From positions 937 through 64,936 of the forward strand of contig ASZN01000007.1 in assembly GCA_000406005.1 (NCBI GenBank): DNA of 64,000 nucleotides, written 5' to 3'. Source of the stretch: Candidatus Poribacteria bacterium WGA-3G. GTDB taxonomy: Bacteria; Poribacteria; WGA-4E; WGA-3G. Below the pieces are notes generated by a model. That model had not been told where the DNA came from and did not search any database. It saw only the letters and a list, made by a program, of their open reading frames with translations. Both the position numbers and the translations under genes were made by a program. This document shows, one piece after another, positions 3,031 through 9,515 of this stretch (the first letter of the stretch is position 1; every line of letters begins with the position of its first letter).

Positions 3031-3402
3031 ATGTCAAATCAATCTAACACGTCGAACGATAAACCACGGACAGTTCAGGACATCATTCGCGAGATAGAGC
3101 AGAAATCGGCTGGCGGTGGTTATATCTATCGCGGTGAACGTAAAGGCAATCCAAAAGTTACCTCAAAACTCTATCGTGATTTTGAGATTGAAACTGGAAA
3201 TTTTGATATAGAACGTGTCCAAAAAGAGATGTTGGCAGGTGCGAAAAAACATACAGGGCACCTACCTCATGACTCTCGCGTGGATGTCATGGCACCACCA
3301 AACGTGATAGCGGCGTTTACAGGGGAAACAGAGGAAGCAATAGATTTTGAAATTCTCACCGAAATCCAACACTACGGTGGTAAAACGAAGCTGCACTGCT
3401 AA
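3031..3402 (+). pseudogene. FRG-domain protein, 3'-truncated
   Basis: YIYRGE (the F/YRG motif) and EIQHYGGKT resemble the FRG-domain QHyGlpT box. The ORF stops immediately afterwards, exactly where repeat copy R1a begins (about 3390). Confidence 0.5.
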
Positions 3403-3616
3403 CACCCTCGCAAGCATAGCAGTCCAACAAAAAACTGTCCGCTTAGCGGATTACCTGATGCTACAGGTTTTCAATCCGAGAACCCGCGATTCAGATAATA
3501 AGAAAACGCCAACCCCTAACCCTGCCAATTAGAAAGTTCCGACTAAAACCGTTGATAACCGACACAAGTTGTGGTATACTTTTCTTAACTATTTATAGGA
3601 AGAGGTGAATACCATG
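3390..3616. repeat. Repeat family R1, copy a (coding remnant ..LTPSQA*, hairpin, GATTCAGA box, promoter, RBS)
   Basis: Aligns by eye with 4289-4455 and 7569-7835. Shared blocks include CTAACACCCTCGCAAGCATAGCAG, AAAACTGTCCGCTTAGCGGATTACCTGATG, GATTCAGATAATAAGAAAACGCCAACC and AAAACCGTTGATAACCGAC.CAAGTTGTGGTATACT. Confidence 0.75.
3552..3580 (+). promoter_or_regulatory. sigma70-type promoter TTGATA-17-TATACT with extended -10 TG
   Basis: TTGATA at 3552-3557, 17-nt spacer, TGgTATACT ending at 3580. It lies about 30 nt upstream of the DUF433 start. Confidence 0.6.
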
Positions 3617-3907
3617 AACGACTATAGAGATATTATTACCATTGAACCGGGGAAACGCAGCGGGCAGCCGTGTATTCGAGGAATGCGGATCACCGTTTAC
3701 GATGTCTTTGAATATCTGGCATCGGGTATGACAGTCGCGGAAGTTCTTCACGATTTTCCGGAGTTAACCGAGACAGATATTCGCGCCTGTTTTGCTTACG
3801 CTGCGGACAAGGAAAAAATGCAGATGGTCGTTTACACAGATGAAACTTCTATTCGATCAGAACCTATCCGCCCAACTGGTGACACTGCTGGCGGACCTGT
3901 TTCCTGA
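3614..3907 (+). CDS. DUF433-family antitoxin-like protein
   Basis: GKRSGQPCIRGMRITVYDVFEYLASGMTVAEVLHDFPELTETDIRACFAYAA is typical of DUF433. RBS GGAAGAGG lies upstream of the ATG at 3614. The 3' end overlaps the next gene. Confidence 0.7.
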   Translation: MNDYRDIITIEPGKRSGQPCIRGMRITVYDVFEYLASGMTVAEVLHDFPELTETDIRACFAYAADKEKMQMVVYTDETSIRSEPIRPTGDTAGGPVS

Positions 3908-4172
3908 TTCCACGCATGTCAAAACGATAGGGTTAAATACGGCGGCGGATACCGAGTTATGGGATTACGCTCGTGATAACGACTATCTCATCATTTCAAA
4001 GGATACAGACTTTAGGAATAGGAGCGTTATTCACGGTTATCCGCCAAAAGTGATTTGGGTCAAGATAGGGAATTGTGCCACAAGCACTGTCGAATACAAT
4101 TTGAGAAAGCATTTCGCTGATATTAAAGAATTTGCGAGGAACGCAAATGCGGGCTTATTTATCCTGCGGTAA
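3840..4172 (+). CDS. PIN-like (DUF5615 / Mut7-C type) toxin-like protein
   Basis: MKLLFDQNLS...ELWDYARDNDYLIISKDTDFRN fits the acidic-residue pattern of DUF5615 partners of DUF433. The internal ATG at 3840 is preferred to the ORF-track start at 3792. Confidence 0.6.
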   Translation: MKLLFDQNLSAQLVTLLADLFPDSTHVKTIGLNTAADTELWDYARDNDYLIISKDTDFRNRSVIHGYPPKVIWVKIGNCATSTVEYNLRKHFADIKEFARNANAGLFILR

Positions 4173-4288
4173 TCGGATTAAACGCCAACAACCAACAGAG
4201 AAATCGCCATTTAGAAAGCGGGAGCCATTTATCCTAAAAGCACGCATTCGTTCAACGTGCATATAAAGTTCTGTTAACTTTGAGCGGC

Positions 4289-4455
4289 AAGAACATAAGT
4301 TTAAACTACCGGAAGACTTCGCCGCACGACTAACACCCTCGCAAGCATAGCAGCCTAACAAAAACTGTTCTCTTAGCGGATTACCTGATGTTACAGGTTT
4401 TCAATCCGCGAAATCTGCGTCATCCGTGATAATCCGCGATTCAGATAGTAAAGAA
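4289..4455. repeat. Repeat family R1, copy b (lacks the promoter half)
   Basis: AAACTACCGGAAGACTTCGCCGCACGACTAACACCCTCGCAAGCATAGCAGCCTAACAAAAACTGT...AATCCGCGATTCAGATAG aligns with copies a and c. Confidence 0.7.
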
Positions 4456-4677
4456 ACTGTCATTTAAAAAATAAACCCTGAACACACAAACCCACCTCCC
4501 TTCTGAACACGCAACCCGCGTATCAACTTTTACCTTGAAAATGAAATACGCCTCTGGTATACTCATGCCAAACTTTGGACAATTTTCAGTCTGTTGCTTG
4601 AAAGCGAGTAAAACCCAATGTATTCCATAGAAACGCCGCATTGCTTCCACAGAGGTTTCCGTGTATGCTTTCAAGAC

Positions 4678-4747
4678 ACATAGCACTCCGCTGGAGTGCA
4701 GGACCGGTTCCCCTGGCTGCTATAGACATATTGCTCCGCTGGAGCAA
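4678..4747. repeat. REP/PATE-like double hairpin (ACATAGCACTCCGCTGGAGTGCA ... TTGCTCCGCTGGAGCAA)
   Basis: Two 7-bp-stem hairpins with identical CCGCTGG centres. The same arrangement recurs at 17664-17733. Confidence 0.7.
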
Positions 4748-4831
4748 ACGTTAATACCTTCTCCGGTTTCCAGATGCAGCAAATATAAACTTGAGAAATC
4801 TACGCTTTGTGCAGATTTTAGTGAAAATTGT

Positions 4832-4860
4832 TTGCATCACTTATCAAATAATGGTATAAT
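4832..4860 (+). promoter_or_regulatory. promoter TTGCAT-17-TGgTATAAT
   Basis: The -10 box ends 7 nt before the ATG at 4868, which implies a leaderless or near-leaderless mRNA for the HD gene. Confidence 0.55.
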
Positions 4861-4867
4861 TTAATTT

Positions 4868-6250
4868 ATGACAGAACGCCTACATGAAATGCGAGACCCG
4901 ATTCACGGGTTTATCAAACTTTCCAAAAAAGAGAAGAAACTGATTGACACCCAAGTGTTTCAGCGGCTTCGTCGAATTCGGCAACTGGCACTGACATCTT
5001 TGGTGTATCCGGGGGCTGTGCATACCCGATTTGACCATTCTATCGGTGTGATGCACGTTGCGGGCCGAATTTGCCAGAGGCTTCAGGAATTAAATCCATC
5101 AAAAATATGCGATGAAGACATAGATCGGGTTCGGCTTGCCGCATTGCTTCATGATGTCGGGCACGGCCCCTTTAGTCATGTTTCCGAGCATCTTTTGAAA
5201 AAGTACGCACCAGCAGATGCCGATACAGGACAGGTTCTCGAAAAAATACACGAGAAGATCACAGTAGATATTATCCGGAGCGATCCACAAATCAAAAACA
5301 TTCTAAAAAATGATTGCGAGTTCGTGATTGACATGATTCAAGGGAAACCGACGCGGGACTGGCAGCGTGACATCGTTTCCAGTGAATTAGACGCGGATAA
5401 AATGGACTATCTTTTACGCGATTCGTATTTTGCCGGTGTCAAATATGGTGAGTACGATCTGGAAAAACTGATTGAATCTTGCCGTATTGCGGACCGTCGA
5501 GAAACCCCTCTCGCAATTGGTAGCAAAGGAATTTACGCTCTTGAACAACTCCTATTAGCGAGGTATCACATGACACAGCAAGTCTATTGGCACCGAGTAA
5601 GTCTCATTTCCAATGAGATGATTGTTCGCGGTATTACCCTTGCAATTGATGGGCGTAACACAAAAATGGGCAAACTTTATAAATACCCTAAAAAAAACAA
5701 GAGAACCTCCGATGAGGATTACGAAAAAAAGAAAAAAGATTTCGTTCAAAACTACCTAAACTATCATGATGAAAAGGTGATTGACCTTTTGAGGAATTGC
5801 AAGCAAGAGAAAGCCCGAGAAATTTTCAATCAGATTTATAATCGGGAACTTTACAAAATGATTGCCGAGATTCGATTCAAGGACGAAAGGGATGAAATGG
5901 TTCGGACTGGTCTCCGAGGAGTGATAGCGGATCCAGATCGGAAACGCCAATGTGAAGAGAACATTGCGGCACATATAGACATTGATCCTGATTATGTGAT
6001 TGTCAATAAACCGCCAATCCGGAATCTGAATTACGTCAGTCAGACCGAGACCCCGAATCTGGAAGCGATTATGGTTTTCGACGAAAAGCAAGATTTACTT
6101 ATGTCTCTACCAGCGTACGCAGGTGAACTATTTTTTGTCAGGCACTCCGCTGACACCTCTGCTTTAGAAACTATCCAAGTTTATGCCCCACATAAAAATG
6201 ATTCAAAAAAAGAGAAAAGCGAAATCCAAAACATTTTGCGTTCCTCATGA
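4868..6250 (+). CDS. HD-domain phosphohydrolase, SAMHD1/EF1143-like (COG1078, putative dNTP triphosphohydrolase)
   Basis: RFDHSIGV, LLHDVGHGPFSH and DADKMDYLLRDSYFAGV form the H..HD..D metal-binding signature of this family. Confidence 0.8.
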   Translation: MTERLHEMRDPIHGFIKLSKKEKKLIDTQVFQRLRRIRQLALTSLVYPGAVHTRFDHSIGVMHVAGRICQRLQELNPSKICDEDIDRVRLAALLHDVGHGPFSHVSEHLLKKYAPADADTGQVLEKIHEKITVDIIRSDPQIKNILKNDCEFVIDMIQGKPTRDWQRDIVSSELDADKMDYLLRDSYFAGVKYGEYDLEKLIESCRIADRRETPLAIGSKGIYALEQLLLARYHMTQQVYWHRVSLISNEMIVRGITLAIDGRNTKMGKLYKYPKKNKRTSDEDYEKKKKDFVQNYLNYHDEKVIDLLRNCKQEKAREIFNQIYNRELYKMIAEIRFKDERDEMVRTGLRGVIADPDRKRQCEENIAAHIDIDPDYVIVNKPPIRNLNYVSQTETPNLEAIMVFDEKQDLLMSLPAYAGELFFVRHSADTSALETIQVYAPHKNDSKKEKSEIQNILRSS

Positions 6251-6261
6251 AAGGAGATTAT

Positions 6262-6831
6262 ATGAACATTGTTGACATTCTTCTACTTGTCATCAAAAGT
6301 GAACCTGGGGAGGAGTTAAGAGGGAGAACCCTCCTTCAAAAGAAAATCTATTTTCTGAGCGTCTTGCTCAAAGAAAATTTCGGATTCTCCGCTCACTATT
6401 ATGGGCCTTATAGTAGTTTCGTGGCGGAACATTTAGATGGTTTGGTGAACTATGGTGTCATCAAGGAATTCACAGAGTCTTTTACTGCCACTTCAGTTGA
6501 GCAAAACGCTTTCGGTGAAATTCGGAGGCACACCTATTCTCTAACCGCTGATGCTGAAGAGATGTGGGACGCAACTCAGCAAAAACTTGAGTTTCAAGAA
6601 TGGAATGAGGCACTTCAAGCCATCAACGAACAAAAGATTTCCAATGACTTTAACAGGCTTTCCATCGCGGCAAAGGTTCATTACATTGTTAGTTGGGAAG
6701 GGGAAAGCACAGTAGAAGAAGTTAAACAGGTTGCCGAGGAATATGGCTGGGACCTGGAGGAAGATGATATCGAAAACATCCTTTTCTTTTTAGAAGCCCT
6801 GAGTCTTGTACCCTATACTCCGCACTTCTAA
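6262..6831 (+). CDS. Panacea (DUF4065/SocA)-like domain protein
   Basis: LLQKKIYFLSVLL...FSAHYYGPYSSFVAEHLDGLVNYGVI resembles the KLqKLlYf...yGPv core of the Panacea domain. AGGAG lies 5 nt upstream of the ATG at 6262. An alternative ATG at 6247 overlaps the HD stop as ATGA. Confidence 0.5.
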   Translation: MNIVDILLLVIKSEPGEELRGRTLLQKKIYFLSVLLKENFGFSAHYYGPYSSFVAEHLDGLVNYGVIKEFTESFTATSVEQNAFGEIRRHTYSLTADAEEMWDATQQKLEFQEWNEALQAINEQKISNDFNRLSIAAKVHYIVSWEGESTVEEVKQVAEEYGWDLEEDDIENILFFLEALSLVPYTPHF

Positions 6832-7072
6832 TTTCGTTTTTTAGTATTTATTTCCTGAACCCTTGTGGTTCCAACATTCAGCAAACAATGTCCAGTGGAT
6901 CAGAGAAAAAGATATATGCGAAATGAACGCCTAATTCGCATCTCCCAATGTCCTTATCCTGTTCGGATCCTTGTGTGACGTGGGTTCGTCTAAAAATATC
7001 AAAACGTGTCAAAACAAGTGCGGAGTGTGGGTTGTACCAACCGATAAATCTGATGACATTCCATTCTAAAAA

Positions 7073-7501
7073 ATGAAGGATATTGTAATCATGTTAGGAG
7101 AAAGGCTGAGAAGATTTAGACGGGTCTGTGGTATGTCCATAGGAGATTTATCGGATGCAGTTGATGGATTGGTTAGCAGCCAAACACTGTCAAAATATGA
7201 ACAAGGGGAGCTACAACCGACAGCAGTAGTACTCATTCGGATCGCTGCAGCACTTGGTGTTAAGTCTTCCCAATTGTTGGGCGAACCCTTTTGTGATACA
7301 GAAACCGATCAACCTCTGAATCATACCGTCGAACTACCCACTGACAAATTAAGCGAACGCTGTAGATTCCTACAATTACCAAAAAAAGAAAGAGAGCGCA
7401 TCTTGAGGAAACAAGCAGAGGAGATAGTGGATTTCTACGAAAACGATACAAAGTGGCGAGAATGGGTCAGGGGTCCAATTATCGAGTACGAAATCCCTTA
7501 A
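7073..7501 (+). CDS. XRE-family helix-turn-helix protein
   Basis: LGERLRRFRRVCGMSIGDLSDAV...SQTLSKYEQGELQPTAVVLIRIAAALGV is a classical Cro/C1 HTH. Confidence 0.7.
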   Translation: MKDIVIMLGERLRRFRRVCGMSIGDLSDAVDGLVSSQTLSKYEQGELQPTAVVLIRIAAALGVKSSQLLGEPFCDTETDQPLNHTVELPTDKLSERCRFLQLPKKERERILRKQAEEIVDFYENDTKWREWVRGPIIEYEIP

Positions 7502-7568
7502 TCCGAAGCAGTGAGAAACCCAGAATATAATTTTTGACCTCACTGTTAAAGTGTTCCCGACTTTTAGC

Positions 7569-7835
7569 AGAAACATGAGATTAAACTTACCGGAAGACAT
7601 CGCCGCAATGCTAACGCCGCCGCAGGCATAGCAGTAAAGCAAAAACTGTCCGCTTAGCAGATAACTCGATGTTCCAGAATGTCAATCCGTGTTATCTGTG
7701 AAACCTGCGATTCAGATAATAAGAAAACGCCAACCTCTCACCCACCAATTAGAAATTTCATACTAAAACCGTTGATAACCGACGCAAGTTGTGGTATACT
7801 TTCTTAACTACTTGGAGGAAAAGGTGGATACCATG
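7569..7835. repeat. Repeat family R1, copy c (full length, including promoter and RBS)
   Basis: Collinear with 3390-3616 up to and including the first codons (ATACCATGAA). Confidence 0.75.
7772..7800 (+). promoter_or_regulatory. promoter TTGATA-17-TATACT (duplicate of 3552-3580)
   Basis: Same hexamers and spacer length. The spacer differs from the 3552 copy at one position. Confidence 0.6.
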
Positions 7836-8060
7836 AAAACGCTTGCGTTGGAAACTGATTATAAAATCAAATTGCCTCTTGACTGGGTGAAAGAATTGGG
7901 GTTGGAATCGGGTGTTGTGCTTGAAAGGACAGATGATGGCATCCTAATCCGTCCATCCCTTGCACAAACATGGGACGAGATTTATGCCGAGAAACTCAAA
8001 ATAGGGAATACCTCGGCACTTGACTTGTCCGAGGTGAGTGGTGATGACCTTATCTTTTGA
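7833..8060 (+). CDS. AbrB/SpoVT-type antitoxin (VapB-like)
   Basis: KIKLPLDWVKELGLESGVVLERTDDGILIRP is a swapped-hairpin beta-barrel motif. GGAGGAAAAGG RBS precedes the ATG at 7833. Confidence 0.65.
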   Translation: MKTLALETDYKIKLPLDWVKELGLESGVVLERTDDGILIRPSLAQTWDEIYAEKLKIGNTSALDLSEVSGDDLIF

Positions 8061-8634
8061 TCAATCTGCGCCGCGTGGGCTGGACGCGATGCTGATTGTT
8101 TATTCCCTGCTTGATGACCATCCCGCATCCGCCGCGTGTGAATCGTTTATCCGAGACCACACAAATTGGTTCACAACAACGCTTACGCTGCTTGAAGCAA
8201 AAGCGATTCTCACAAAGGTTTATGCTGTAGATACCAATCTTACCTCACAACAACTTTCCCAATTTTCCGAAGGACCTATTGAGATTGTTGAAGTAGATTT
8301 GCCGATAACCCTTGTTGCAATGTCGATTGCCGACACCTTAGCAATCGACATCACCGATGCAGTTTTGGTGCAAGCAACGCGCACTCGTAATGCCAATATC
8401 CTCGCAACAGATGACCGTAAACTAATACAAGCCTGCCATCAAGTAGATATTACGGTTGAAAACCCAATTGATGTTTCGCTACGGAGGCAAATGGCAAGTT
8501 GGGAATCAGAAAACTTGCCGCAAAAAGGATTGCCCCGCATCCTCAGGCAAATTCATCGCTGGTTGCATCAAAACCATCAACAGGCTGCCGAAGATTTCTG
8601 GTCGCAAACCGGCGGTGGGAGCCACTTACCCTAA
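8038..8634 (+). CDS. PIN-domain ribonuclease (VapC-like) with about 60-aa C-terminal extension
   Basis: Acidic residues sit in LDAMLIVY, LLEAKAIL, ITDAVLVQA and ILATDDRKL. The start overlaps the antitoxin stop by 23 nt. Confidence 0.65.
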   Translation: MVMTLSFDQSAPRGLDAMLIVYSLLDDHPASAACESFIRDHTNWFTTTLTLLEAKAILTKVYAVDTNLTSQQLSQFSEGPIEIVEVDLPITLVAMSIADTLAIDITDAVLVQATRTRNANILATDDRKLIQACHQVDITVENPIDVSLRRQMASWESENLPQKGLPRILRQIHRWLHQNHQQAAEDFWSQTGGGSHLP

Positions 8635-8672
8635 CAGAACAGAAATTGTGTACGGCATACGGAGTATGCCTA

Positions 8673-9515
8673 CTACCTTGTCTTAAGCGCCCCCCACGTC
8701 GTCGTCAATTTACCAGCAATATCCACAGTCAGAATGTCCCGCGAGTTCATGACCGCCTCGACCTCTTCCGCCGTTAACGCGCGATCATACACAACCAACT
8801 CATCGAGCAAACCTTTATAGAGGTTCGCACCGTTATTCGTATCCGGTCTGCCCCCGATTTCGATGTTATTGTCGTTCCAGACCATCACGGGAGCGTTGTT
8901 CGGGGTCGCTTTCTCACCCACAAGCTCACCATCAACGTAGACTTCAAGCTTTTCGTCATCAAAAGTACCGGCGACGTGATACCAGGTATCCGGTTTTAAA
9001 CCCAAATTCGGCACTGAAACCGTCGTATCAACATCGGCACCGTTAAACGGACCCATCTTCTTCTGCCCAGAATTGATATACCAGTACAACCCTTCACCGC
9101 TGCCGAGTCCAAATTCGACGTTATCATCGCTTGTCCCAGACTTGTCGTAAAAGATGTTCCCATAGACGTGCCCATTGCCGAGCGCGACATCCGATATTTC
9201 AAACGGGAATATCCAAACAGCGACAGTCAGATGCTCCACATAGAGTTCGCTCTGCCCGCCCGGATCAATAATTAGGGCAGGGCCGCCCGAGAATTCTATC
9301 GCACCGCCGACTTTGCCTTTGGCAACGAATTCCGCGCTGTCGTGGAGTTCCGCTTCAAACCCTTTCGGACCGACATCTCTCGCAACATCACCTTTACCTT
9401 CATTGAACGGCAAGTAAAAGTGTATACCATCCGTGATCCGTGCCGTAGCACTGAGCGTTGCAACACAAAAAGTAAAAATCGCGAAAATCAAGAAAAGTCT
9501 TCTCATTTTGTCCAC
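8673..9515 (-). CDS. secreted LamG/concanavalin-A-like lectin domain protein
   Basis: N-terminal signal peptide (LFLIFAIFTFCVATLSA) and the typical Laminin_G_3 C-terminal motif LLDELVVYDRALTAEEV. Confidence 0.65.
   Translation of the reverse strand: MDKMRRLFLIFAIFTFCVATLSATARITDGIHFYLPFNEGKGDVARDVGPKGFEAELHDSAEFVAKGKVGGAIEFSGGPALIIDPGGQSELYVEHLTVAVWIFPFEISDVALGNGHVYGNIFYDKSGTSDDNVEFGLGSGEGLYWYINSGQKKMGPFNGADVDTTVSVPNLGLKPDTWYHVAGTFDDEKLEVYVDGELVGEKATPNNAPVMVWNDNNIEIGGRPDTNNGANLYKGLLDELVVYDRALTAEEVEAVMNSRDILTVDIAGKLTTTWGALKTR

Follow-up and report, generated by a model that had tools for sequence, protein, structure and literature searches.

Genomic Context of the Locus

The locus belongs to a Candidatus Poribacteria genome, a sponge symbiont, and lies in a window comprising the whole 64,000-nt stretch of DNA analyzed here. 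On the forward strand it encodes a 460-aa HD phosphohydrolase (4868–6250), a smaller partner protein of 189 aa (6262–6831) from a family that carries the JGI name “uncharacterized protein YwgA,” and a 142-aa XRE-type HTH protein (7073–7501; Pfam HTH_31/HTH_3). The HD gene and the partner gene each have hundreds of homologs and are therefore real genes. The module was said in the first-pass annotation to lie between repeat-bounded toxin-antitoxin (TA) cassettes, and a repeat search located the repeat copies there. The repeat is ~190 nt long. One copy (3390–3582) bounds the neighboring TA cassette; the second (4321–4472) closes this upstream DUF433/PIN-like cassette (3605–4172) and bounds the HD module on the left, and the third (7602–7802), ahead of a MazE-like/PIN TA cassette (7791–8634), delimits the HD-partner-XRE block on the right. 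An Rfam scan of positions 4200–7900 matched no family.

In the Poribacteria clade, the HD-partner pair sits within a defense island: 11–12 Poribacteria loci have a type IIG restriction-modification gene upstream, and AAA_15/21 ATPases, Schlafen-AlbA_2 proteins and TA cassettes occur near the pair. HTH_3 is among its commonest neighbor families. Homologs of the XRE protein (65–69% identity) follow the partner gene by ~35 nt in seven loci and are decayed in four more; it is a clade-specific third gene in the closest Poribacteria relatives and a candidate transcriptional regulator of the module. Outside sponge symbionts, the neighbors vary, with PolIII alpha and GyrA among them.

Promoter and Translation Starts

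Upstream of the HD gene is a predicted sigma-70-type promoter (4832–4860, forward strand) with a -35 element TTGCAT (4832–4837), a 17-nt spacer and an extended -10 element TGgTATAAT (4852–4860; TATAAT at 4855–4860). The -10 element ends 7 nt from the ATG and the HD gene has no Shine-Dalgarno sequence ahead of it, so a leaderless mRNA is predicted. Within the 64 kb, the arrangement TATAAT-N7-ATG was found twice against 2.5 occurrences expected, and a single case is thus no better than chance; what makes it meaningful is its fixed position across relatives, given that the same -35/-10 layout recurs in ~20 Poribacteria loci with the -10 ending 6–8 nt from the ATG. That this near-consensus promoter, conserved in position, gives a leaderless mRNA, as had been proposed from the single locus, is plausible. 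Public RNA runs gave sparse coverage: a few low-depth contigs fall inside the HD gene, and one contig from a relative begins 67 nt upstream of the ATG.

The partner gene had been described as overlapping the HD stop codon through an ATGA. This tetranucleotide exists (6247–6250) and would give a 194-aa product starting at 6247, but it is probably not the true start. The ATG at 6262 is favored because a GGAG Shine-Dalgarno (6253–6256, forward strand) lies 5 nt ahead of it and because most partner homologs begin at the corresponding Met. The resulting stop-to-start spacer of 11 nt is kept in 20 related loci.

The First Gene Encodes a COG1078-Type HD Phosphohydrolase

The 460-aa protein matches Pfam HD (2.8e-14) and PF19276 HD_assoc_2 (4.6e-25; 88.8 bits, cut-off 23.1), the latter indicating that the C-terminal HD-associated helical region is present. 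Searched with phmmer against the PDB, it matched Aq_1910 (2HEK, 1.4e-45), 9MR6 (1.8e-39), EF1143 (2O6I, 1.2e-38) and SAMHD1 (~1e-30). It carries the motifs RFDHS, HDVGHGPFSH and DADKMDYLLRD, and all COG1078 motifs (H...HD...D, HDxGHxPFSH, DxDKxDY) are visible in the alignments to 2HEK, 9MR6 and 2O6I. Thus the open reading frame, the Pfam and PDB matches and the motifs all agree with the first-pass description of a COG1078 HD protein with the H..HD..D and DADKMDYLLRD signatures. Among 39 paired HD homologs, residues H57, H95, D96, H99, H104, D175, D177, D180 and Y181 are invariant. By these criteria the protein is a COG1078/SAMHD1-type enzyme (SAMHD1-EF1143-Aq_1910 class) with every catalytic residue intact; it is predicted to be catalytically competent and to act as a (d)NTP triphosphohydrolase, hydrolyzing dNTPs to deoxynucleoside and triphosphate. 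Its substrate could also be other than dNTPs.

An insert at approximately residues 261–300 is specific to the paired HD subfamily. The anti-phage dGTPases fall in the Dgt (COG0232) branch; against the HD protein, the NCBIfam antiphage_dGTPase model scored 26.2 bits, below its 400-bit cut-off, and the PADLOC dGTPase model matched residues 22–114 only (1.5e-11).

The Partner Resembles the C-Terminal Domain of DarG

In its AF2 model (pLDDT 94.5), the partner consists of an N-terminal winged helix and a C-terminal helical bundle. It has no Pfam match, and no nucleotidyltransferase match was obtained against Pfam, NCBIfam or PADLOC. The PADLOC DarG model, on the other hand, matched it at 5e-8 and matched 100 of 103 partner-family members (best E 6e-12), and the NCBIfam DarG model matched at E 2.8e-5 over model positions 188–317 (23.6 bits, for a cut-off of 250). 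In the DarG models the match is confined to the C-terminal part; the N-terminal macrodomain is absent and there is no adjacent DarT, the neighbor being the HD protein. A phmmer search of the PDB with the single partner sequence gave no match, and it was the family profile alone that reached 7YK3 (chain 7YK3_B, E 5e-4), on the motif QK.YF...F.P.YGPYS. Foldseek of the AF2 model placed the same chain first among PDB matches over the full length (TM 0.62, E 1.9e-4), followed by PadR, RTP and other winged-helix DNA binders. Judged by profiles and by the predicted fold, the partner is a stand-alone homolog of the DarT-binding C-terminal domain of DarG.

The N-terminal half had been likened in the first-pass annotation to the Panacea/DUF4065 domain. 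Membership in Panacea, for which Kurata et al. used a PF13274 match at the gathering threshold, was rejected: PF13274 gave no match to the partner at E ≤ 1 and matched 0 of 103 family members at E ≤ 0.1, and scans of Pfam, NCBIfam and PHROGs returned no Panacea match. A regular-expression search of the fetched loci found no Panacea proteins, and a BFVD fold search with the partner returned uncharacterized archaeal-virus and PadR-like proteins instead of any named Panacea. The best 120 matches listed in a homolog search with the partner-family profile were all close relatives. What the comparisons do suggest is a similarity at the profile-profile level over ~60 N-terminal residues. Aligned by hhalign to 67 diverse PanA sequences, the partner family gave a probability of 69% (E 4.5e-5) over ~60 N-terminal columns, whereas 21 controls (one reversed and 20 column-shuffled) reached at most 0.9%. 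Furthermore, the best PDB match of a bona fide PanA model was also 7YK3_B, weakly (TM 0.46, E 0.1). These profile comparisons point to a possible remote link, with Panacea probably a more distant relative of the partner than the DarG C-terminal domain.

Linkage, Asymmetric Decay and Inheritance of the Pair

Of 79 genome loci, spread over 14 phylum-level groups, ~68 have the HD gene directly ahead of the partner gene. The distance from HD stop to partner start ranges from -38 to +47 nt (66 loci), with frequent overlaps of 1, 4 or 14 nt, and is within the ≤100-nt PanAT criterion. In scans seeded with HD proteins, all 17 members of the paired subfamily had the partner downstream, while ~120 other COG1078 HD proteins lacked it, except in two remote pairs whose divergent partners (loci L184 and L265) are also without Pfam match. 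The tie first suggested by this one locus, in which an HD enzyme in the toxin position precedes a small protein resembling an antitoxin, is therefore borne out across genomes. In B. subtilis, ywgA presumably follows the HD gene ywfO in the same HD-then-YwgA order; to our knowledge, YwfO-YwgA has no known function.

In nine loci the partner is intact and the HD gene is deleted, truncated or frameshifted, a count to be read knowing that the sample was seeded by the partner and that, as a target for mutation, the HD gene is 2.4-fold larger. One locus carries a tandem duplication of the partner gene. This asymmetry, with the HD gene decayed and the partner kept, resembles that of a toxin and its antitoxin. 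Orphan partners beside ABC ATPase, GNAT, ThiF or RelE genes were considered as alternative toxin pairs and rejected, since HD stumps in several of these loci mark deletion scars.

A motif scan recovered the pair in ~276 of 185,579 species genomes, and only seven IMG/VR contigs carry it. Mapped on phylum labels, the HD tree requires 14 changes where the minimum is 13, and the Poribacteria form nearly one clade. Because the tree tracks phyla, the pair is not an obviously mobile cassette; in Poribacteria it is a long-term resident that has been inherited mostly vertically. Transfer between phyla of sponge symbionts was rejected on the same phylum-coherent clades. One HD sequence labeled Gammaproteobacteria, nearly identical to those of Poribacteria and located on an 8-kb contig, is likely mis-binned.

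Comparison With Known Systems

The C-terminal domain of DarG binds and blocks the toxin DarT, a DNA ADP-ribosyltransferase. The partner shares with this domain the QK.YF ... YGPYS motifs and the full-length fold (TM 0.62, 7YK3), and in both systems an antitoxin or antitoxin-like gene adjoins that of the enzyme it would restrain. It differs in having no macrodomain, hence no enzymatic (ADP-ribosyl glycohydrolase) detoxification; moreover, the enzyme is an HD phosphohydrolase, not DarT, and its gene comes first.

We know of no dedicated protein partner of either Dgt-type defense dGTPases or SAMHD1. The HD protein has metal-binding and substrate motifs in common with human SAMHD1, which, like the single-gene anti-phage dGTPases (Tal et al., 2022) that, together with Clover (below), set a precedent for restrained defensive dNTPases, is an HD-superfamily dNTP triphosphohydrolase that starves viruses of dNTPs. 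A two-gene anti-phage module, Clover, combines the dGTPase CloA with the nucleotidyltransferase CloB, which restrains CloA via the small-molecule signal p3diT and so avoids self-toxicity (Yamaguchi et al., 2025; PMC12265719). The proposed module would likewise hold an HD dNTPase effector in check through an operon partner. Unlike CloB, however, the partner lacks enzyme motifs and matches no Pol-beta-type nucleotidyltransferase; because it looks like an antitoxin domain that binds protein, direct protein inhibition would be expected.

The pairing of an HD dNTPase with a Panacea-like protein had been put forward as one not known to be described, but an HD domain protein (YdhJ) with PanA (for example WP_013433482.1) is already listed by Kurata et al. 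(2022; Dataset S1, PMC8832971) as the predicted PanAT cluster T34, drawn from five Firmicutes genomes. T34, whose proteins may be orthologs, resembles the pair in that a COG1078 HD gene is followed by that of a small antitoxin-like protein, the two overlapping or nearly so; in the N-terminal QK..YF..GP region the profiles also suggest a remote similarity. In contrast to PanA, the partner and its 103 relatives do not match PF13274.

Proposed Function and Alternative Explanations

We propose that the module encodes a protein-inhibited dNTPase, organized like a type II TA system, that acts in abortive or bacteriostatic defense by nucleotide depletion, and we give this reading a probability of about 0.5. 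A strong promoter would produce a probably leaderless mRNA covering the two genes and, in this clade, the XRE gene as a third. The first gene would yield the SAMHD1/EF1143-type HD (d)NTP triphosphohydrolase and the second, translationally coupled to it, the acidic winged-helix and helical-bundle protein homologous to DarG’s DarT-blocking domain. The partner would bind the enzyme physically and stoichiometrically and hold it inactive. If the partner were lost or displaced, for example after phage shut-off of host expression, the freed and then toxic enzyme would deplete dNTPs and halt DNA replication in phage and cell alike.

The HD protein might instead be a housekeeping or damaged-nucleotide triphosphohydrolase, with the partner serving as a subunit for assembly, targeting or allostery that does not inhibit it, and with no role in TA or defense. 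COG1078 enzymes also serve as housekeeping regulators of the dNTP pool, relatives such as EF1143 being cellular dNTPases, and the mostly vertical inheritance in Poribacteria, the loci that adjoin PolIII alpha or GyrA and a family name taken from an uncharacterized B. subtilis y-gene, YwgA, would all fit. Yet a core function would not show so patchy an incidence (~276 in 185,579 species genomes), repeated losses of the HD gene have left the partner in place, the partner’s only clear relatives are antitoxin domains, and in this clade the pair lies within a defense island; we consider a housekeeping role unlikely. Nor do we give much credence to a partner that is chiefly a PadR-like winged-helix transcription factor, autoregulating the operon without direct control of the enzyme. 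The PadR, RTP and winged-helix DNA binders that follow DarG among the Foldseek matches are consistent with such a repressor, as are weak Pfam matches to RTP, HARE-HTH and TrmB in a few family members. However, the partner is acidic (pI 4.5 overall and 4.05 in the C-terminal half, in a family ranging from 4.3 to 9.9), which argues against a DNA-binding repressor role here, although less acidic family members may bind regulatory DNA, given the winged-helix N-terminal domain. In addition, the pair is followed in this clade by a distinct XRE regulator, the structural match to an antitoxin domain that binds protein extends over the whole chain, C-terminal bundle included, and strict co-evolution with one HD subfamily would be unexpected for a simple repressor.

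A classical addiction-type PanAT, in which a true Panacea antitoxin counters an HD toxin and stabilizes the island with no part in phage defense, would account for the TA cassettes that flank the module on both sides and for the partner’s profile-level similarity to Panacea, and HD(YdhJ)+DUF4065 pairs in toxin-then-antitoxin order do appear in the list of Kurata et al. But that list also holds evident non-toxins (carbonic anhydrases and substrate-binding proteins), the partner fails PF13274 membership, a 460-aa metabolic enzyme is atypical as an addiction toxin, and long vertical residence in Poribacteria is unlike the turnover of selfish TA systems; this explanation seems to us quite improbable. 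Returning to the protein-inhibited dNTPase, a broader version of it can be offered tentatively, at less than even odds: the YwgA/DarG-C-terminal fold could be a general proteinaceous “safety catch,” and HD-YwgA a widespread, uncatalogued anti-phage system in which the dNTPase is released on infection.

Significance

Nucleotide depletion by SAMHD1-like enzymes is an antiviral strategy common to animals and bacteria. How cells protect themselves from such enzymes is an active question, to which Clover (2025) is one answer. The pair described here, which is present in many phyla, suggests a different and simple solution, in which an antitoxin domain would have given rise to an inhibitor protein dedicated to the enzyme. 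This locus contributes a well-conserved leaderless-type promoter, and asymmetric gene decay is clearly documented among its relatives. If the broader “safety catch” reading is true, it would add a third control of nucleotide-depletion immunity to SAMHD1-style allostery and Clover’s inhibitory nucleotide, and join DarG, Panacea and YwgA in one antitoxin superfamily. An inhibitory partner would also mean that the antitoxin fold of the DarG/Panacea type reaches to a “toxin” that is a metabolic enzyme, and would provide a function for the long-unknown YwgA family.

Family and conserved motifs of the HD protein

The 460-aa HD protein (4868-6250, forward strand; ORF reading and Pfam) matches the Pfam families HD (2.8e-14) and HD_assoc_2 (4.6e-25). 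By sequence, its closest solved relative in the PDB is Aquifex Aq_1910 (2HEK, 1.4e-45), and matches were also obtained to 9MR6 ("HD domain-containing protein," 1.8e-39), the Enterococcus dNTPase EF1143 (2O6I, 1.2e-38) and SAMHD1 (about 1e-30). The RFDHS, HDVGHGPFSH and DADKMDYLLRD motifs align in register with those of the solved relatives, and the motif residues are invariant across 39 homologues from loci in which the partner gene lies downstream. The assignment to the COG1078 dNTP triphosphohydrolase type made in the first-pass annotation is thus correct, and family membership suggests activity on dNTPs. The protein is not a member of the Dgt-type "anti-phage dGTPase" model (26 bits vs. a cut-off of 400), and its match to the PADLOC dGTPase model is confined to the N-terminal 90 residues.

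Pairing with a downstream partner gene

The partner ORF (6247/6262-6831, forward strand) encodes 194 or 189 aa, depending on the start. The HD stop had been described as overlapping the partner ATG and an ATGA is indeed present at 6247-6250, but the evidence favors the ATG at 6262: a GGAG (6253-6256) lies 5 nt ahead of it, its Met (query residue 6) is where the alignment begins for most of 560 representative homologues, and the HD stop is 11 nt from the partner start in 20 related loci. The genes overlap by 1, 4, 7 or 14 nt in other lineages. Whichever start is used, the two genes are translationally coupled.

Co-occurrence across genomes was examined by scans seeded from either gene. The partner's motif, searched in 185,579 species with a single genome for each, returned 276 relatives, and among the best 79 loci of the 276, which were analyzed, about 68 have a same-family HD gene directly upstream on the same strand. 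The loci span 14 phylum-level groups, including Poribacteria, Chloroflexota, Acidobacteriota, Nitrospirota, Nitrospinota, Elusimicrobiota, Thermodesulfobacteriota, Planctomycetota and Verrucomicrobiota. In HD-seeded scans of metagenome and viral contigs, HD proteins were scored against a profile of paired HDs: the partner is present in 17/17 of those scoring at least 377 bits with room downstream, whereas it is lacking from about 120 COG1078 proteins with scores of 310 bits or less. Thus, the paired HDs form a subfamily of their own, co-evolving with the partner. Two low-scoring HDs of another subfamily (198-243 bits) are exceptions; they are followed by divergent partner-like proteins (L184, 2026-2634; L265, 3355-3915) that keep GR.K.QK...HYGPYS and match no Pfam family, so pairing reaches beyond the paired-HD subfamily. 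Only seven IMG/VR contigs carry the partner, and in five the HD gene is present too.

Paired HDs differ from solo COG1078 proteins by an insert at about residues 261-300, which in the HD protein (4868-6250) is Lys-rich (…KLYKYPKKNKRTSDEDYEKKKKDF…) and carries a conserved Tyr271, and by the specific invariant residues R254, Y271, E363 and P441. The insert and these residues are candidate contact sites, or a docking site, for the partner.

Relationship of the partner to DarG and Panacea

The partner has no Pfam match whatever at E ≤ 1, and phmmer found no match to it in the PDB. It does match the C-terminal third of two models of DarG, the antitoxin of the toxin DarT: PADLOC (5e-8, model positions 177-305 of 329) and NCBIfam (2.8e-5, positions 188-317 of 338). 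The PADLOC model is matched by 100 of 103 diverse partner-family members (best E 6e-12), and the motif QK.YF...F.P.YGPYS lets the family profile detect the M. tuberculosis DarG C-terminal domain in the PDB (7YK3_B, E 5e-4). From the family alignment, AlphaFold2 gave a confident model (pLDDT 94.5, pTM 0.90) in which a winged helix precedes a helical bundle; in the PDB, Foldseek returned significant matches to this model only for chains B and D of 7YK3 (E 2e-4, TM 0.62 along the entire length), with generic PadR/RTP winged helices next. The protein is acidic (pI 4.5 overall, 4.05 for the C-terminal half).

The partner had been likened to Panacea (PF13274, DUF4065), the antitoxin domain of PanA proteins. 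Membership is ruled out by the usual test, as PF13274 is matched neither by the partner nor, at E ≤ 0.1, by any of the 103 family members; as a resemblance, however, the impression was fair. We compared the partner-family profile by hhalign with the validated PanA of Burkholderia prophage phi52237 and homologues, all annotated PF13274, which gave 41% probability. With 39 further PanA genes from viral contigs added, probability was 69% (E 4.5e-5) over about 60 N-terminal columns covering the QK..YF helix and the aromatic-x-x-GP turn, while one reversed and 20 column-shuffled controls reached at most 0.9%. An AlphaFold2 model of PanA (pLDDT 96.2) likewise has 7YK3_B as its top PDB match, albeit a weak one (TM 0.46, E 0.1). 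YwgA-like proteins such as the partner, the DarG C-terminal domain and Panacea probably form one remote superfamily, within which the partner is far nearer to DarG.

Separately, 53 of the 103 family members also match the PADLOC candidate-defense model PDC-M19A and 8 match NDT_II-A; modules like the DarG C-terminal domain may therefore be embedded in other candidate defense proteins.

Genomic context and inheritance

Close relatives have the pair between a type IIG restriction-modification gene (Eco57I/MmeI-like; 25-2817 in the window) and a LamG-domain gene (8673-9515). In the window this ancestral arrangement is interrupted by two toxin-antitoxin cassettes identified with Pfam, DUF433/PIN-like (3605-4172) and MazE-like/PIN (7791-8634), each adjoining copies of a repeat of roughly 190 nt (3390-3582, 4321-4472 and 7602-7802), which bears out the earlier description of a module between repeat-bounded cassettes. 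The type IIG gene is immediately upstream of HD on the same strand in 11-12 loci (the window, L005, L007, L011, L021, L025, L029, L032, L033, L035, L036 and L051), an association that may be more than synteny; one of these loci is from a Nitrospinota genome. The 123 immediate neighbors include 12 type IIG genes, 8 XRE HTH genes, 4 AAA_15/21 ATPases and 4 Schlafen-AlbA_2 genes. As 121 different Pfam families occur in all, there is no universal third gene. Neighbors outside sponge symbionts include PolIII alpha and GyrA.

Within the window's clade, the unit is effectively HD-partner-XRE, the XRE gene being a clade-specific third member. The 142-aa XRE-HTH gene (7073-7501) starts 241 nt downstream of the partner; in seven Poribacteria loci a homologue (65-69% identity) lies about 35 nt beyond the partner, and the gene is decayed (frameshifted or truncated) in four more. 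The spacer in the window (6832-7072) exceeds that of relatives by about 200 nt, with no Rfam match and no second copy within the window. Short RNA-run contigs at 6820-6945 have a depth of 22-30 (run X11) vs. 2-4 inside genes; the spacer may encode a small RNA, or it may be a repeat or a 3' end with high expression.

In a maximum-likelihood tree of 62 HD proteins, those from Poribacteria form almost one clade and the phylum labels require 14 changes, against a minimum of 13. Thus, the pair has long resided in a defense-rich locus, with mostly vertical inheritance, and is not a visibly hopping cassette. One 8.3-kb contig of a "Gammaproteobacteria" MAG (L011) encodes an HD protein nested within the Poribacteria clade and nearly identical to those of two Poribacteria genomes (branch length 0.025); this contig is either mis-binned or reflects very recent transfer.

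Promoter and transcription

The HD gene is preceded, in the same orientation, by a promoter (TTGCAT, a 17-nt spacer, TGgTATAAT) whose -10 box ends 7 nt from the ATG, as first annotated, and the gene start has no Shine-Dalgarno sequence. TAnAAT-N7-ATG taken alone is at chance level in the 64 kb (2 found vs. 2.5 expected). About 20 Poribacteria relatives (55-90% HD identity) keep the -35/-10 pair and have 6-8 nt between the end of the -10 and the ATG, and this positional conservation supports a leaderless HD mRNA in the window's clade. In a second subclade the -10 lies farther away, about 19-20 nt upstream, and the arrangement is different again outside Poribacteria.

In public sponge metatranscriptomes, coverage within the HD gene is limited to a few contigs of low depth, those identical to it covering 4967-5154, 5212-5419 and 5905-6061; an RNA contig from a relative (about 95% identical) covers 4801-5139. 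Upstream of the promoter, the repeat and REP-like hairpins (4400-4450, 4660-4750) reach RNA-run depths of up to 168 in chimeric contigs that run on into unrelated sequence, which indicates that these elements are multi-copy in sponge metagenomes.

Asymmetric decay of the two genes

In nine partner-seeded loci the partner is intact and HD is disrupted or missing. The HD remnant consists of the first 114 codons (L017), the last 64 codons (L006), 41 codons in an in-frame fusion with the partner region (L025) or four frameshifted pieces (L028); the gene is absent entirely from L027, L032, L042, L043 and L045. No partnerless HD of the paired subfamily was found. This is the pattern expected were the enzyme harmful without its partner; it is suggestive and not proof, since the sample was partner-seeded and HD, of the two genes, offers mutation the larger target. 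In a separate case, two tandem partner genes follow a single intact HD gene (L015, 4373-5570). L028, a Terriglobia MAG locus from a sponge (3113-4755, 8366-8905), also has a second partner copy, preceded by an apparent C-terminal HD fragment.

Prior description and proposed mechanism

The first-pass annotation knew of no description of an HD-Panacea pairing. One such pair is listed as predicted cluster T34, with the CDD label YdhJ, which we take to be COG1078. Dataset S1 of Kurata et al. (2022; PMC8832971) gives T34 as an "HD domain-containing protein" (CDD YdhJ) with a DUF4065 PanA, in the order toxin then antitoxin, from Ammonifex, Desulfofundulus and three Caldicellulosiruptor genomes, all marked "notest"; the main text does not mention HD toxins. 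The pairing is therefore not entirely unlisted, but our literature search found no functional study of YwgA, YwfO or a dNTPase with an antitoxin. Overall, the original observation is confirmed and its interpretation partly supported: the partner is antitoxin-like, but not a Panacea member.

The partner's acidity is more in keeping with binding to a protein, or mimicry of a nucleic acid, than with repression through DNA binding, and the DarG C-terminal domain reportedly inhibits by mimicking ssDNA. Because this domain is the part that physically binds DarT (title of PDB 7YK3) and the partner is acidic, we favor direct, stoichiometric inhibition of the HD enzyme, whose release from the partner would lead to dNTP depletion. 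Clover, in which a dGTPase effector is restrained by an operon partner, is a functional precedent, although its restraint acts through an inhibitory nucleotide (PMC12265719) and not, as favored here, through direct protein inhibition; single-gene defense dGTPases and SAMHD1 are further precedents. The HD-partner pair, which is directly testable, is an uncharacterized variation on known themes, those of nucleotide-depletion effectors and DarG/Panacea-type antitoxins.
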